A stretch of DNA of 6,288 nt from a virus (lineage: Duplodnaviria; Heunggongvirae; Uroviricota; Caudoviricetes): positions 1 to 6,288 of IMG/VR virus record IMGVR_UViG_3300011530_000017; one strand, given 5' to 3'. The notes beneath the pieces were generated by a model. The model saw only the letters and a list, made by a program, of their open reading frames with translations, made no database searches and was not told where the DNA came from. The stretch's first letter is position 1, and every line of letters begins with the position of its first letter. Of this stretch, positions 1-6,288 are shown piece by piece. Both the position numbers and the translations under genes were made by a program.

Positions 1-2112
1 TCAGTTGAGCTTAGCTGCAATCGACAGCTGCATTGGGCTATCTGAATTTTGAAGTCTTACTACAAATACCAATGATGAAGTTGTGCTTTCTGTAGCAACA
101 TAATTCACAGACGCCAGTCTTGGATATACTGAGCTTCCGTTATATGCATCAATGCTGAGGTATGGATTAACTTCTCCAGCTCCGGGCACATACGGCAGGC
201 TTAAACCAGATATCGTTATCTTCTGGTCGGAGGTACTAGACGCTGAGACTGTACCGGCCCCAGATTTCACTACCATCCGGTTACCACCAGAGCTACTCGT
301 CAACTCCAACGCAGCTCTCGACCCTGCATCTGTTGCGCCGTCGAAGCCGGACACCCAGGTACCCAGTCCACCCTCGTTGAATATGCGACCTCTTAACTGA
401 CCAGCCGTTCTCCAGAATCCGCGTGCTGAGTACCCGATACGTACATCAACAGTGTGGTTGAAACCGCCGTTCACAGCCAATGCCGTGCCGATATAACCGT
501 TGCTGTCTGTCCCGAAGCAGCCACGGATACTACCTGTTAAGTGGTTGTGATCGCCTTCGATTAAGACGCCAGACCCCGGGAGGTTATCTGCAACAGTCGG
601 GCTCCGTACGTGCTGGACGTTCACGGTATTGAACTGCCCGCCGAGGTAGATAGCCCAGCTAGCATAGTCTTTATTAGTTGTCTTCTCAGACTGCAAGCTA
701 TGGATGGTTCCGAAATCACTTATCTTGCCGCTATTCGTGCTGCTTTCAATAATAATAGCGGGAGGATATGTACTCATGGCATGCAACGGGACGGGAAGAT
801 GTTGACTATTCTGATGCGCGTCGAGCCTTGACCCCAAGACGTAGCTACTTTTCCTGAACCACGCACCGATCAAGCAGCTTTCAACAATCATTTGGCCGTA
901 CTGAACTCGGATAGTAAAAATATTCGCATCAGAGCCAAATACGGCACCGTAGCCGTTGTAGTTGCCATAGCTGTGGAAGAGTTCAAGGCTCACACCTCGC
1001 CAGGCTCTGAAGTTGGCGACTCGTTCATTCGGTGCCCAGAATGAACGCACGTCATCTGTAGACACATACCCATCCCCGGCTCCAACAATTTCGATGTCTT
1101 CGAGGTAGTAGTCCTGACTCTCGCAGTGCCAGCAATCGTTGCCACAGAACTGGATACGAATCTTCCGATGCGTGCCGATATGCCCCCACCCACGATCTGG
1201 GTCAGCGGCCTGGTACAGGCTACGGTTTCCACCCCAGTTCAGCGTTACAAGGCCGACGCTTGGAACATAGATAATCTTAATGTTCTCGAGGTGCATGTTC
1301 TCACCAGCAAGCAAAAGACCACAACCAACATCCTTCGCAGGAGTCCCTGAGAATTTTGATTTATTGCCGTGGATGGTCAGATTCTTAACTCCGGAACTGA
1401 AGCAGCCTGGCACGATCTGGCTGGCACTATCCGTCTTGTACGTGAGATAACCCTGCCCCATAATCACTGCATTACCAGTCCAGTTGTCCGGCGCTTTAAT
1501 CATTGTAGTTTCGAGCGTTACACCCTCAATAACGACTCGCGGTTTCAGCAGCAGATTAGCAGCACGGTACGTTTTAGCCCTGAGCTTAACAATGCCGCCA
1601 CCTTGTGCGTAGACGTAATCAATAGCCGTCTGTATTGCCGCTGTGTCATTGCTAACGCCGTCCCCCTTAGCATTGAACTGCTCAGCCGTGACATTTACAA
1701 GGGCATCCTTTAGAGTGCCATTTGGTGATACACCGACGAGTGAGCCATCTCCATTCTGAAGAACATATTTAAACTGGTCAGGCTCATACTTCAGTACATT
1801 TGGGAAATAAAATTCCTGCGATCCATATGCGTCAAACACAGCCATGCTGTGACCCTGCTCGGTCACAACCTTAACAATTTGCCCGCCATAAACTGGAAAC
1901 CCGGCAGCATTGATAATTAGCGGCTGCGGTATCTGAACAAGCGAGCCATCTTCATTTTCAATGTAAACCGGGATTTGGTTGGCCGGAATTGTTGGGTCTT
2001 TGTCTATCTTTCCGATGTAAATACGCCCGTTAGCGAGCGCTTTAAAAGAACGCGATGCAGTGAAAAGTTGGGACGGCATCCCGACTACGACATTAGCTGT
2101 GATATCTGACAT
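1..2112 (-). CDS. Tailspike protein (703 aa): P22-type head-binding N-terminal domain plus right-handed beta-helix receptor-binding/depolymerase module
   Basis: Start ATG at 2110..2112 (revcomp of cat), GGAG at 2120..2123 seven nt upstream, stop TGA at 1..3. The protein begins [40 protein letters not shown]...[13 protein letters not shown]...[28 protein letters not shown], closely resembling the P22 gp9 head-binding domain ([34 protein letters not shown]..., recalled from memory). From about residue 146 the motif [22 protein letters not shown] is the signature seen at the start of pectate-lyase-like beta-helix tailspikes. The ORF-track start at 2160 adds 16 residues ([16 protein letters not shown]) with no RBS and is rejected. 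Confidence 0.9.
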
Positions 2113-2219
2113 TTCATTGCTCCAGACGAATGATATGATGCAACCATGATGTGATTGCATACCGAAATGGTACTATTGAGTATTTATCCAGTAGGTTACG
2201 ATGCCATTCCACCCAACTG
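2113..2219. promoter_or_regulatory. Divergent intergenic region between tailspike and mnt-like gene: tailspike RBS, short inverted and direct repeats, possible promoter/operator
   Basis: Tailspike GGAG at 2120..2123. Inverted repeat ATGCAA (2138..2143) / TTGCAT (2155..2160) with an 11-nt spacer. ATGATG occurs at 2135..2140 and 2146..2151, 11 bp apart. On the minus strand TGGATAAAT (plus 2182..2190) is a weak extended -10-like candidate. No confident promoter can be assigned, and the region is cut short by the N-run. Confidence 0.3.
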
Positions 2220-2229
2220 NNNNNNNNNN
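2220..2229. other. Run of 10 N: assembly or sequencing gap of unknown true length
   Basis: Ten consecutive n characters in the sequence, falling inside or just upstream of the 5' end of the mnt-like gene. Confidence 0.95.
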
Positions 2230-2445
2230 CTCCACGCGAAAATTAAGCAGCGTGCGAAGATGAATAACAGGTCGCTGAACTCAGAGATAATTGCAGCGAT
2301 TGAAGAATCATTGGCTAAACAAAGCTCTGCATCTGTTTACATTGACGATGCAGATCGTATGGCAGAACAACAATCTGAGATTGTTAAGAAAATTGTCTTT
2401 GATACGCTTAAGACCATGTATAGCAATAATAAAAAGGAAACATAG
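2230..2445 (+). CDS. mnt: Mnt-like ribbon-helix-helix repressor, 5' end obscured by the gap (resolvable part 71 aa plus stop)
   Basis: The translation after the gap, LHAKIKQRAKMNNRSLNSEIIAAIEESLAKQSSASVYIDDADRMAEQQSEIVKKIVFDTLKTMYSNNKKET, parallels P22 Mnt (...REKLKFRAEANGRSMNSELLQIVQDALSKPSPVTGYRNDAERLADEQSELVKKMVFDTLKDLYKKTT, recalled from memory). Stop TAG at 2443..2445. The expected N-terminal beta-strand of the RHH fold is missing, so the true start lies in or beyond the N-run. The track's start at 2155 ([21 protein letters not shown]) does not look like Mnt and depends on the gap being exactly 10 nt. Confidence 0.8.
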   Translation, partial: LHAKIKQRAKMNNRSLNSEIIAAIEESLAKQSSASVYIDDADRMAEQQSEIVKKIVFDTLKTMYSNNKKET

Positions 2446-2515: not shown

Positions 2516-3001
2516 ATGAAAAAATCACTGTTAATTATCCCGCTTCTGCTGGTTGGATGCGCAAAAGTAAGTGACTATCAAGCAAGTTGCGAACAACGCT
2601 ATCAAAAGCTTAGCGATATGGCTAATTGCCTTGATGCCAGTGTGAAGAACGACTCACGCATGGCATCAGCACCAACACCTAAGCTGTATGTCCTTGCTGC
2701 AAAGATGCTCGGGCAAGGTGTCGATGAAGGCAAGATAAGTGACGCACAGGCAAGACTTGAGCTTCAGAATCTTTATGTTCAATTACAAAGCCAAGAACAA
2801 GCCCAACAAATAGCACAAAGCCAAGCATTCCAGCAGGCTTTATTGAATTATCAGGCTGTAAACACAATGCAAGCGATCGAGCAAAAAGCGCGCCAGCCTG
2901 TTATAACTCAACCTTACCCAACACGCGTTGACACATATACAAACTGCAATTCAGGATTTGGAAACACGGTAACATGCAACAGTAGCAGTAACATCAGATA
3001 A
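2516..3001 (+). CDS. Lipoprotein of unknown function (161 aa precursor), candidate superinfection-exclusion or lysogenic-conversion moron
   Basis: ATG at 2516..2518 preceded by AGGAG at 2501..2505 (10-nt spacing), stop TAA at 2999..3001. N-terminus MKKSLLIIPLLLVGC has a basic n-region, a hydrophobic core and lipobox L-V-G-C with Cys15. Residue +2 after the Cys is Ala, not Asp, which by the Lol sorting rule predicts outer-membrane targeting. The mature ~146-aa protein has a Gln-rich helical stretch (QNLYVQLQSQEQAQQIAQSQAFQQALLNYQAVNTMQAIEQ) and four further Cys (SCEQ, ANCLD, TNCNS, VTCNS) that could form two disulfides. The track's start at 2480 adds 12 residues with no RBS and is rejected. 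I do not recognise this protein as Bor, Cor, Llp, a spanin or SieA. Confidence 0.8.
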   Translation: MKKSLLIIPLLLVGCAKVSDYQASCEQRYQKLSDMANCLDASVKNDSRMASAPTPKLYVLAAKMLGQGVDEGKISDAQARLELQNLYVQLQSQEQAQQIAQSQAFQQALLNYQAVNTMQAIEQKARQPVITQPYPTRVDTYTNCNSGFGNTVTCNSSSNIR

Positions 3002-3091: not shown

Positions 3092-5089
3092 CTATTCTGA
3101 CAACGAATCAGACTTCGCACCCTGCGTCAGTGCATTAATCGCTTTTTGCGCTTGCTGCATGGCTTTCTCAAACGCTGTCGATCCGCGTGGGGTGTTTGCC
3201 ATTCGGAGCATTGCATTTCTGAATGGCTCGCTCTCATAGGCGCGAGTAAGAAGTCCGTAGCTTACTGCTGCGCCAGTTGTCGCCGGGTTCATTGCCGTCC
3301 CATACCCAATAATGAACGGGATAGTTTGCTGCCCTGTGGGTGTTGTTACTGCCGCTTTTGCAGCCTGCTGCGTGGATTGCAGGTAGTTTTTTAATCCTTT
3401 CAGATAAGCAGCGTCCTGCCCCTTAAATGTGATGCCAGTCTGGTTTTGCAGGATATTAAGCTGCCGAAGGAACTGGTCAGGGGATCCGCCAGATTTCTCC
3501 ATCGCCTTTCCAATGATGCCATTGCGCATTTGCGCCCTGCCAACACGACCAACTGAGTTATACAGCGTCTTAATTTCCGATTTGTTCTTGCTGAATAGCA
3601 TGTTGTTGACAACTTCCGGCGTCAGGTCGCCTTTCATGAGAACATTCTTCAGCCTGGTATTCTTTAGTTTCGCTGCTTCGTCAGCGTAGACGGCATTGGC
3701 CTGCTGATATTTACGGAGAGTATCGTTGCCAAGATTCTGACCAATGGCACCATTGATATCGTCGGTCATTGCCTTGTAAACTCGCTGAATGGCAGCATCG
3801 GAACGGTTTGGTAACACTGGCCGCTCACCCTTCACGTCCATTCTGAACTGGCTGCGCAGATCGCTTAATTGCTTCAAATCCAGATTTACCGGACCATCAG
3901 GACCAGCATTGCGAACAAGCTCATCACGATAGGACTGAAGTTTTGAAATAGTCTCGTTATCGGCGACCTTACCAAGCTTCTGCAGGTTAGATATTTCTGT
4001 ATCAATCTGCTGAATTGCTCGCGCAGGCTGAATGTTTACTCCAGCCCTAGCATTCTGAACCTGCTCCAGTCGATTACCGGCGGCACGACGAATTCCTGAT
4101 GTTTTCGCTTTAAGGCTGTCAATAACAACCGCTGGATCATACTCACCGAATTTATCAGCAAATCTCTGCACCAACTGGCTTCTCGCTTCCTGTTGCGTTG
4201 CTCTCATTCCGCTTGTGCCAGCCAGAGGGATATTTTCTGCTGTAGTCTGCGCCATTTTTCCGACGCGGGAAGTTGGTTGTAACAGGTCTGTGGTGTACAG
4301 AGGAACTCCTTCACGCTCTGCAAATCTGATAGCCTGCTGCGCTTCTGGCGCGATAGCACCACGAACGCCACGATAAGCAGCACCTAATCCACGTCCGGCA
4401 GCGTTAATAGCACCGCCAGTAAGTACACCAACGCCTAAATCGGTGGCGAGTGCTTCCGCATCATCTTTCGCACTATTTGCAGCAAGTGATCCAACTGCGT
4501 TTTCTGCGAGAAGTCGTGTTGCCCCCTGAGCAATTCGACCAGCAAGTGTTGGTGCCTGTGCCGCCGCTCTCTCAACGCCAGCAGGAGTGAGGTAAGGCAA
4601 TGCTTCAGCAAATACCCTTCCCTCTGTCGTTTGTGGAGTCAGCGCGCCTTGCTGAAGGCCAAAGTCCTGCTCTAATCCCTGCGTTGTTACTCGTGGCGCT
4701 GGTTGATATGTACCATCGCCAATACCGAGTTTACCGCCAGCCCATGCTGCCGCGCTTGTTACAGCATCGGCAACTGATGCAGGTATGTTTGCCACGTTCA
4801 CGCCAGCCTGCACCAGTCCGCGACCAGTCTCTTTTACTGCTTCGCCAAGATCAGACATAAATCCACTTTGCTGTGGTTGTTGCTGTGCTACTGGTTGTTG
4901 TGTCTCCACTGGCTGCACAGATGGCAATGGATAGGCAGCATAGAAAGCTTGCTTAGCCTGCTCTGCATTTTCTCCGGCTTGCGGGGCCACGACTTCATTG
5001 AAGTATTGCTCCTGAGCCAGCGCTTTTTGTTCTGGTGCTAACGCCTGATACTGTGGAGAGGCGATAACATCTTTCCATGCTTTAGCCAT
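3092..5089 (-). CDS. Ejection (DNA transfer / E) protein, gp16-like by position (665 aa)
   Basis: ATG at 5087..5089 with GGGGTGA upstream on the minus strand, stop TAG at 3092..3094. This is the last long ORF of the late operon immediately before the immI-like/tailspike region, the slot of P22 gene 16. The sequence has Gln/Ala/Gly-rich low-complexity stretches and no recognisable enzymatic motif. The call rests on synteny and composition, not on a remembered alignment. Confidence 0.75.
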   Translation of the reverse strand: MAKAWKDVIASPQYQALAPEQKALAQEQYFNEVVAPQAGENAEQAKQAFYAAYPLPSVQPVETQQPVAQQQPQQSGFMSDLGEAVKETGRGLVQAGVNVANIPASVADAVTSAAAWAGGKLGIGDGTYQPAPRVTTQGLEQDFGLQQGALTPQTTEGRVFAEALPYLTPAGVERAAAQAPTLAGRIAQGATRLLAENAVGSLAANSAKDDAEALATDLGVGVLTGGAINAAGRGLGAAYRGVRGAIAPEAQQAIRFAEREGVPLYTTDLLQPTSRVGKMAQTTAENIPLAGTSGMRATQQEARSQLVQRFADKFGEYDPAVVIDSLKAKTSGIRRAAGNRLEQVQNARAGVNIQPARAIQQIDTEISNLQKLGKVADNETISKLQSYRDELVRNAGPDGPVNLDLKQLSDLRSQFRMDVKGERPVLPNRSDAAIQRVYKAMTDDINGAIGQNLGNDTLRKYQQANAVYADEAAKLKNTRLKNVLMKGDLTPEVVNNMLFSKNKSEIKTLYNSVGRVGRAQMRNGIIGKAMEKSGGSPDQFLRQLNILQNQTGITFKGQDAAYLKGLKNYLQSTQQAAKAAVTTPTGQQTIPFIIGYGTAMNPATTGAAVSYGLLTRAYESEPFRNAMLRMANTPRGSTAFEKAMQQAQKAINALTQGAKSDSLSE

Positions 5090-6288
5090 TAATCACCCCA
5101 TAGTGAAGAAAAGTTACTGCTGGCTGCTGGCTGTGATACCTGTGCAGGTTGAGATTGCTGCCGCTGAGATTTACCAACATTAACGTTATATTGTTGGTTG
5201 TAATTGTTGGTGTATTCCTGAATCTCACGAATCGACTGCTGCATAGCCTCTGGGCTTGAATAGTCAACCTGCGGCATCCCCTGAAAATACATCTTCGCTT
5301 CTGCAACGGTGTTAATACCACTGGCACCCATGTCCCTTGCTGCCGCCACACCCTGATTCTGCATTCTGCCCTGAATACGTTGTGCTGAGTTATATAACTG
5401 GCGCTGCTCTTTTCCTGTTAATCGGCTGCGAACATCAGCACCAATTGCTGGATTACCTGCACCGCCTGTCATTCCTGTCATGAAATCGAGAGCAGAAGCG
5501 TCTGCATTTGCGATCGCGTCGATATCCTTCTTCATGGCATAGTTTTGTGCTGATGCAGACGATGTTGCAGGCGCTGCGATTGAACTGGCAGGAACGCGAA
5601 CCATATTCCCCTCGTTGTCGATGCCTTCGTAGAACGCATTAGCCCCAGCGCCGTGAAGCTTACCGCCTACCGTTACAGTTCTGCCATCTGATAACTGAAC
5701 TGTACGCTCATCATTCACAGCGATTCCTCTTGTTGACGCTCGCTGCATTGCCAAATCCTGACCTCGCCGCGCAGTAAAAGCAGATAAGTCCTGACCGCGC
5801 ATCGTGATGTTCTGACCTAGTGCTGTTAGCGCCTCGCCAGCCTGATTGCTGCGGATTGTCTCTGCAAGTTTTCCGCGGTCAATCTCACGACCAACGATTC
5901 TGTCTTGTGCCTGAAAATATTGTTCTGGACCAAGCGCATGCATTCCGATGAGATCGGCATACTGGCTGAACTGCTGAGGATTCTGCTGATACGCCTGCAC
6001 CACAGCTTCTGGCGTCAAGCCTAACTGCTGTAATGCTCCGGCATGTTTCTGAGCGGCAACCTGCACCGCCTGCGGGCCCGTTATGGCTGCCAGCTGAAGA
6101 TCACTGGCGGCATTACCAATCTGCTTATTTTTTTCAGCATCAATGAAGCCCAATCCCTGCTGAATAGCCTGAATCTGGTCAGGGTTGCTGGCCGCCAGTT
6201 GCTTTAATGCTTCCCGGTCACCAGATGCATAGGCCTGGCCGAAAGCCTGCTGAAATTGCTGTTGCTTGTCGTTATTCTGGATTTGCGA
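5089..6288 (-). CDS. Ejection protein, gp20-like by position (partial: 5' end lies beyond the right edge of the window)
   Basis: Stop TAA at 5089..5091 overlaps the downstream ATG as TAATG. The reading frame stays open from 6288 down to the stop (hand translation of 6154..6288 shows no stop: ...[55 protein letters not shown]...). The track's start at 6153 is a TTG inside this open frame and is rejected as the true start. Gln-rich C-terminus ([17 protein letters not shown]). Confidence 0.75.

Follow-up and report, generated by a model that had tools for sequence, protein, structure and literature searches.

A well-studied relative of the locus analyzed here is the immI region of phage P22, in which mnt lies between genes 16 and 9 together with arc, sar and ant, and in which a palindrome placed directly upstream of the -35 box of the mnt promoter (Pmnt) overlaps the strong promoter Pant. 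The same interval is highly variable among P22-like phages, and Villafane et al. (2008; PMC2629481) recognized ten types of gene 16/9 region in sixteen genomes. Those of ST64T, ST104 and Para1 contain just mnt and one unknown gene, and an E. coli B7A prophage is drawn in Fig. 3 of the same study. A spacer of ~120-150 bp, with its own palindrome at the position of Omnt and neither arc nor ant, separates mnt from the divergent tailspike gene in ST64T, ST104, L and ST160 (Villafane et al., 2008, PMC2629481; Zaworski et al., 2021, PMC8022706). In phage BTP1, the gene 16/tailspike junction encodes STnc6030, an antisense RNA expressed from the prophage that confers immunity (Owen et al., 2020, PMC7067206). 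An mnt gene divergent from the tailspike in the absence of arc and ant can be read in the annotated records of phages L, ST160, JEP4, vB_EcoP-720R6 and Sf101, and the allele family of the gene studied here is shared by hundreds of E. coli prophages as well as by phages Sf101 and IME10. Because it is seen in so many sequenced phages, the mnt-only form of the ant moron is a known and widespread arrangement of P22-like phages (PMC2629481, PMC8022706), of which the present locus is an ordinary case.

The stretch of DNA under analysis (hereafter, the window) is 6,288 bases long and represents the distal portion of a late operon from a P22-like (Lederbergvirus-type) prophage. As in P22, the mnt-like gene is found between a homologue of gene 16 (3092..5089) and a homologue of gene 9 (1..2112). 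The features of the window are as follows.

1..2112, minus strand: tailspike gene of the P22 gp9 type, with a head-binding domain and a pectate-lyase-like receptor-binding part.
1768..2112, minus strand: N-terminal Head_binding domain of the tailspike (Pfam, E 4e-59).
2113..2158, minus strand: 5' leader of the tailspike gene as read from the sequence, with RBS GGAG at 2120..2123 (minus strand) and an imperfect inverted repeat at 2138..2160.
2159..2173, no strand assigned: candidate Mnt operator ATACCGAAATGGTAC (RTACCR-AAA-YGGTAY), 2 bp upstream of the mnt -35 box.
2176..2202, plus strand: Pmnt-like promoter from a weight-matrix scan, consisting of TTGAGT (2176..2181), a 15-bp spacer and TACGAT (2197..2202).
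2220..2229, no strand assigned: run of 10 N, equal to 65 bp in relatives.
2230..2445, plus strand: codons 18-88 and stop codon of the mnt-like gene, encoding ribbon-helix-helix helices A and B and the C-terminal tetramerisation helix.
2516..3001, plus strand: predicted lipoprotein ORF of 161 amino acids (MKKSLLIIPLLLVGC...), in the position of P22 sieA.
3092..5089, minus strand: DNA ejection protein of the P22 gene 16 type, the far border of the variable region.
5089..6288, minus strand: ejection protein of the P22 gene 20 type (Pfam Inj_translocase PF16928, E 3e-38), running off the end of the window.

The first 115 residues of the tailspike share 74% identity with P22 gp9, and its body matches PF12708 (Pfam, E 9e-10). 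Outside the receptor-binding part of this protein the window matches E. coli genomes at 94-96% identity; a megablast search of 5,426 complete E. coli genomes with the receptor-binding part itself (1..1770, minus strand) returned nothing, and the tailspike is predicted to be of a rare or non-E. coli receptor specificity. Over its C-terminal 200 residues, the gene 16-type protein shares 36% identity with P22 gp16 and 99% with relatives annotated as members of the P22 gp16 family. In a close relative, the element at tRNA-Arg (argW, intS) in E. coli strain GPEC1292 (NZ_CM142781.1 1424000..1440000), the tailspike, mnt, lipoprotein, gp16 and gp20 genes are intact; this element is a deletion remnant that has lost all head, lysis, replication and immunity genes, and its gene 20 homologue is fused next to a truncated ral gene.

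Translation of the ORF at 2230..2445 (plus strand) yields LHAKIKQRAKMNNRSLNSEIIAAIEESLAKQSSASVYIDDADRMAEQQSEIVKKIVFDTLKTMYSNNKKET*. This fragment matches Pfam Repressor_Mnt (PF11423, E 6.5e-12), the C-terminal coiled-coil tetramerisation helix that distinguishes Mnt from Arc, as well as Pfam Arc (PF03869, E 1.2e-8), the latter over the helices only, a full-length relative reaching E 7.4e-15. The full 88-residue protein was taken from a 98%-identical relative in E. coli strain GPEC1292, and residues 6-78 of that protein align to residues 3-75 of the NMR structure of P22 Mnt (1mnt; E 2e-19), with a further match to the structure of the tetramerisation domain (PDB 1qey; E 4e-7). P22 Mnt and the window family are 49% identical over residues 6-81, both consisting of a ribbon-helix-helix domain and a tetramerisation helix. 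The window gene thus encodes a true member of the Mnt family of ribbon-helix-helix repressors, including the tetramerisation helix typical of Mnt. An earlier reading of this DNA (the original prediction) had described the C-terminal two-thirds of the protein as Mnt-like, which is right as to identity and too short as to extent, since the resolved part (residues 18-88 of 88) amounts to ~80% of the protein. The entire DNA-contacting beta-strand sits in the gap, and the comparison of operator-contacting residues with P22 Mnt that the original prediction had called for was accordingly made in relatives. The recognition strand reads (E/D)AQFHLRL in 85 close relatives, with Q9, H11 and R13 at the positions of H6, N8 and R10 of P22 Mnt; the arginine is kept, His6 is replaced by Gln and Asn8 by His.

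Homologues of Mnt are widely mislabelled in RefSeq and PHROGs (PHROG 795) as "partition protein ATPase" or "putative chromosome segregation ATPase", examples being Sf101_0014 (L002) and hits H47, H53, H67, H70 and H73. The Sf101 record also starts the mnt ORF too far upstream (97 amino acids), and mnt is left unannotated in that of IME10.

The original prediction had placed mnt some 100 bp plus a gap from the divergent tailspike start, had seen neither arc nor ant in the resolved sequence, and had left room for both in the gap. The first two observations hold. Between the tailspike start at 2112 and the N run lie 107 resolved bases (2113..2219); P22 Arc and Ant gave no tblastn match in the window, and sar (Rfam RF00262) is absent from it, the P22 control locus scoring 97.8 bits. 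The idea that the gap hides arc and ant fared less well. When the surroundings of the gap were searched by megablast against the 5,426 complete E. coli genomes, 439 genomes matched, 104 of them spanning at least 80% of the query, and in all E. coli hits that span the gap the matched stretch was 55 bp longer than the query. The 10 N therefore stand for 65 bp, which, from the alignment to GPEC1292 and Sf101, consist of 14 nt of leader, GTGAGGCATCAAGG, with RBS GAGG and of mnt codons 1-17 (MYSKYDEAQFHLRLPHE). On this account, the stretch 2150..2300 is expected to measure ~205 bp and to read GTGAGGCATCAAGGATGTACAGCAAATACGACGAGGCGCAGTTTCACTTGAGACTTCCGCATGAA.

The spacer between tailspike and mnt is exactly 121 bp in 71 of 84 related loci, which leaves no room for ant. 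The exceptions in length are due to HNH endonuclease genes or an IS3-family element, all to the left of the operator; their insertion points fall in 2113..2219, which the window resolves without interruption, and no relative among the 84 loci has an insertion within the hidden 65 bp. Given that the gap is flanked by the mnt leader on one side and codon 18 on the other, arc and ant would need to sit inside the mnt coding sequence. Beyond the window, arc had no tblastn match in ~165 loci of the orphan type, the same search finding it in essentially all 85 loci of the P22 type (upstream of mnt, a few of these show ant alone or the edge of a contig). Gaps in assemblies are often signs of repeats, and an IS element does occupy the spacer of one relative, so that arc, ant or some private insertion might be imagined in the window's own genome; yet with exactly 65 bp in every spanning relative, no insertion there in any of them, and no match to Arc, Ant or sar, we consider this very unlikely, to the point of giving it almost no weight. 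The insertions themselves are of two kinds. HNH/AP2-type homing-endonuclease genes are found at the first codons of the tailspike, with duplication of the MSDIT start, in L010, L023, L055 and L068 (728-bp spacer) and in L093 and L094 (672 bp), and in L058 (1457-bp spacer), whose mnt also carries R13I, the IS3-family element lies exactly at the left edge of the palindrome.

The original prediction had also proposed a search for an Omnt-like palindrome, and one was found: ATACCGAAATGGTAC (2159..2173) occupies the position of the P22 mnt operator. To place it among its relatives, 256 loci with Mnt homologues from IMG/VR, GTDB genomes and GenBank phages were tabulated by recognition strand, best upstream palindrome and upstream neighbour. 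They fall into three classes.

DPHFNFRM (P22): palindrome (A)GGTCCAC-N-GTGGACC(T); upstream neighbour arc; about 85 loci.
DPQFNLRL (L/ST64T, 720R6): palindrome AGACCAC-N-GTGGTCT; upstream neighbour tailspike; about 82 loci.
EAQFHLRL (the window's family, Sf101, IME10, JEP4): palindrome TACCR-AAA-YGGTA; upstream neighbour tailspike; about 85 loci.

Strand class and type of neighbour agree without exception wherever the upstream neighbour could be scored, a few loci ending at a contig edge, and the operator sequences of the three classes show occasional single-base variants. In the EAQFHLRL class, the automatic palindrome finder mostly chose the nearby leader inverted repeat, and the operator was read at the homologous position; RTACCR-AAA-YGGTAY is present there apart from one six-locus haplotype with a TACAG left half-site and the mutated copy of L011. 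The palindrome is perfect (GTACCA-AAA-TGGTAC) in a Buttiauxella locus and reads TACCG-AAA-CGGTA in JEP4. When the three classes are aligned from the mnt -35 box, they share a CCR-N3-YGG core and differ in their outer triplets and centre, the P22 operator being AGGTCCAC-C-GTGGACCT where that of the window is RTACCR-AAA-YGGTAY. His6 of P22 Mnt has been linked to the outer operator positions. The conserved arginine and the changes at the equivalents of P22 His6 and Asn8 (Q9/H11/R13 in the window's relatives as opposed to H6/N8/R10) would fit the shared core and the differing outer triplets and centre.

ATACCGAAATGGTAC thus corresponds in position to the operators of P22 and phage L, and varies along with the strand class. 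Neither the window nor the whole Sf101 genome contains a second copy of it, the L-type site is likewise unique in the phage L genome, and allowing up to 2 mismatches revealed no further copy in either phage genome beyond the site adjacent to mnt. Mosaic breakpoints between tailspike leaders fall immediately to the left of CATACC, indicating that the palindrome travels with mnt genes of the EAQFHLRL type. The mnt-only phages ST64T, ST104, L and ST160 differ from the window in belonging to the DPQFNLRL class with AGACCAC-N-GTGGTCT, in a protein identity of ~49% to the window family, and in having orf62 on the gene 16 side, where the window has the lipoprotein gene. Sf101, IME10 and B7A carry the same Mnt allele family as the window (92% identity); B7A is 95.6% identical to it across mnt and the lipoprotein gene (H28), and Sf101, the one of the three that was aligned, has the identical 121-bp spacer and operator. 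Sf101 and IME10 differ from the window in lacking the lipoprotein gene and in their C-terminal tail, …ELYKKDSS.

Promoters were scored with a simple sigma-70 weight matrix of our own making. The Pmnt-like promoter of the window, with its poor 15-bp spacer, scored 7.8 compared to 12.6 for P22 Pmnt, and the homologous promoters of JEP4, L and 720R6, with 17-bp spacers, scored 8.1-9.8. At the position of Pant, the best leftward candidate of the window (ATGGCA-17-AATACT) reached 5.8, compared to 15.9 for that of P22 (TTGACA-17-TATATT); the equivalents in three orphan types scored 4.3-5.8, nothing was found in 720R6, and the remnants differ between lineages.

We therefore propose, with a probability of about 0.7 and on the strength of sequence comparisons, that the window encodes a lone Mnt-family repressor acting on its own 15-bp palindrome to autoregulate Pmnt, in a locus whose 65-bp gap holds neither arc nor ant and whose Pant has decayed. 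A Mnt tetramer would bind ATACCGAAATGGTAC, abutting the -35 box of its own promoter, and, once bound, would autoregulate the prophage-expressed transcript of mnt, and probably of the lipoprotein gene, at the border of the tailspike leader. This transcript probably runs on into the lipoprotein gene, which holds the place that sieA has behind mnt in P22. The work of Sauer, Susskind and colleagues reportedly established that, in P22, Mnt favours Pmnt by repressing Pant; in the window, where Pant is gone, Mnt may either raise or lower the activity of Pmnt. As the strong Pant of P22 has decayed in the window, the tailspike is probably made by late-operon read-through alone. The suggestion in the original prediction of an orphan Mnt with a different target is borne out in so far as the gene is an orphan and its family has both the Q9/H11/R13 strand and a different palindrome, a situation that is not peculiar to the window.

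No evidence was found that the tailspike itself, whose leader had been named as another possible target, is regulated by Mnt. In the form that we considered, Mnt bound at 2159..2173 would set tailspike levels, either as a roadblock to late transcripts or by repressing a weak leftward promoter, and a prophage-made Mnt could, by extension, block tailspike synthesis by a superinfecting relative with the same operator. Every orphan mnt of both lineages (~165 loci) is indeed directly divergent from a tailspike gene while its other flank varies, the operator separates the tailspike leader from the mnt promoter, and the P22 region has been proposed to affect tailspike levels (PMC2629481). Together, this strict linkage and the presence at the same junction of the BTP1 antisense RNA conferring immunity (PMC7067206) make a control of late read-through attractive. 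However, the weight-matrix scan found no conserved leftward tailspike promoter common to the different leader types: the Pant equivalents are weak or, in 720R6, absent, and transcription from the alternative ATGCAA-19-TATCAT would start inside the RBS. We thus see no dedicated promoter, conserved among the tailspike leaders, on which Mnt could act as a repressor. Moreover, Sf6 and HK620, which are P22-like and devoid of any mnt, still make a tailspike. A gating of the tailspike by Mnt accordingly appears unlikely.

The imperfect inverted repeat of the tailspike leader (2138..2160; ATGCAACCA / TGATTGCAT) reaches 2 nt into the palindrome from the left. In the tailspike-sense RNA, one of its pairs is U-G, U-A or C-G among relatives, and one G-C is replaced by U-A in L008. 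Across the alignment, 97% of cells pair and one pair is changed on both sides; neither a shuffle control (104/500) nor the fold z-score (-1.16) was significant, such that an RNA hairpin in this leader is weakly indicated. Hairpins just upstream of the tailspike RBS also occur in the other leader types and in P22. Between ant and gene 9 of P22 (L003, 1560..1760), the hairpin is followed by a T run on the mnt-sense strand, whereby it resembles a terminator for transcription antisense to gene 9, and two copies of the motif GTGGCTACGGTGAATTTT lie ~100 bp from each other. The gene 9 leader hairpin is exactly where L and P22 cease to be homologous, and forms one edge of the arc-ant segment.

Sf101-type phages carry mnt wholly alone, with no cargo gene, and yet the gene is conserved. 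A purely self-regulating gene has no obvious selective value, and the account based on autoregulation probably misses an additional output of Mnt. A more far-reaching reading would make lone Mnt a stable second immunity device, kept by selection and directed at a structural gene. Made by the prophage, it would occupy the operator in front of the tailspike gene, either of an incoming phage with an operator of the same class or of the induced prophage itself, reduce late read-through into that gene and thereby yield tail-less, non-infectious particles. The strict linkage of the P22-type specificity to arc and ant, and the fact that each of the two old orphan lineages has an operator of its own, would both fit such a function, to which we nevertheless assign a distinctly low likelihood. 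Mnt would then be the protein counterpart of the BTP1 antisense RNA, as STnc6030 is likewise prophage-expressed from the gene 16/tailspike junction and transcribed against the late operon. It differs in being an RNA rather than a protein repressor, and the two are analogous only in location and possibly in purpose.

The Ant protein of P22 inactivates the repressors of other lambdoid phages, and its promoter, Pant, is repressed in trans by Mnt. On the basis of this P22 genetics, lone Mnt might spare the resident prophage from induction by repressing the ant gene of incoming relatives that carry a cognate operator. Against this reading, none of the ~165 loci of the two orphan strand types has arc or ant beside its operator, and the 16-mer operator was encountered in IMG/VR either next to mnt and the tailspike or in unrelated contexts attributable to chance. 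L120 and L164 do carry ant, but there the gene lies beyond mnt instead of being placed under the operator. The failure to find any phage with an operator of either orphan class in front of ant weakens such trans-protection to the point where it seems improbable. The IMG/VR scan, an exact search for the 16-mer operator, returned 119 stretches, from which 118 new loci were classified. Of these, 89 adjoin mnt and the tailspike; in another 2, mnt is present but the contig breaks off on its upstream side; the 27 loci without mnt were set aside as Mnt targets, being in unrelated contexts and about as numerous as expected by chance.

Some JEP4-type loci do have an antirepressor gene on the other side of mnt, converging with it, and the copy of L120 is 85% identical to P22 Ant; in JEP4 itself (L004, 3270..5930), KilA- and Rha-type genes and a C2-like repressor occupy that side. 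In the loci with an antirepressor, the orphan-type mnt and its palindrome still face the tailspike. The 27 loci without mnt include those of an unrelated phage group (L101, L105, L118, L124, L141, L146 and others), where the 16-mer CATACCGAAACGGTAC occurs twice, 515 bp apart, between the LexA-box-like CTGTATATACATACCG and the RBSs of two paralogous small genes; we judged it a coincidence as far as Mnt is concerned, yet it looks like a regulatory site in its own right.

The authors of the phage L study raised the possibility that such a gene is the non-functional remnant of a degraded immI region (PMC8022706), in which case lone mnt would be kept by linkage. The decay of Pant and a few broken alleles are in keeping with this view: L011 combines a stop at codon 5 with a mutated palindrome, and two other loci carry R13I. 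Yet L011 is the only premature stop among 88 alleles, and pN/pS of mnt in the close family was 0.11 (62 distinct alleles), near the value of 0.126 for the head-binding domain of the tailspike. Nucleotide diversity, computed from 69 loci with the 121-bp spacer, was 0.015 in the spacer and 0.003 in the promoter core, against 0.13 at fourfold sites of mnt, making the spacer ~9 times less diverse than the fourfold sites; the candidate operator (0.0146) was no better conserved than the spacer around it in the close family. Both the pN/pS of 0.11 and the low spacer diversity point to a lone mnt that is functional rather than decaying. Two separate orphan lineages, ~50% diverged, have also each kept a matching palindrome, and we regard the remnant interpretation as highly improbable.

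The predicted lipoprotein encoded downstream of mnt (161 residues, lipobox LVGC) belongs to PHROG 6067, a family of unknown function (E 1.6e-110). Pfam and PADLOC returned nothing informative for it, and NCBIfam returned one GspK match far below cut-off. Its pN/pS was 0.064. The gene accompanies most of the 88-residue mnt alleles (…TMYSNNKKET) and is absent with the 86-residue Sf101-type alleles (…ELYKKDSS). It may share a transcript with mnt and could serve in superinfection exclusion or lysogenic conversion.

Lone mnt genes are common, the stretch around the gap alone matching 439 of the 5,426 complete E. coli genomes. Purifying selection on these genes and the existence of lineages with their own predicted operators indicate that the published suggestion of a decaying remnant is probably wrong. 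What the present analysis adds to the published arrangement is the linkage of strand class, neighbour and palindrome across 256 loci and the evidence that lone mnt is under purifying selection. The three classes of recognition strand and predicted operator would make a natural specificity series for the well-studied Arc/Mnt model of DNA recognition.
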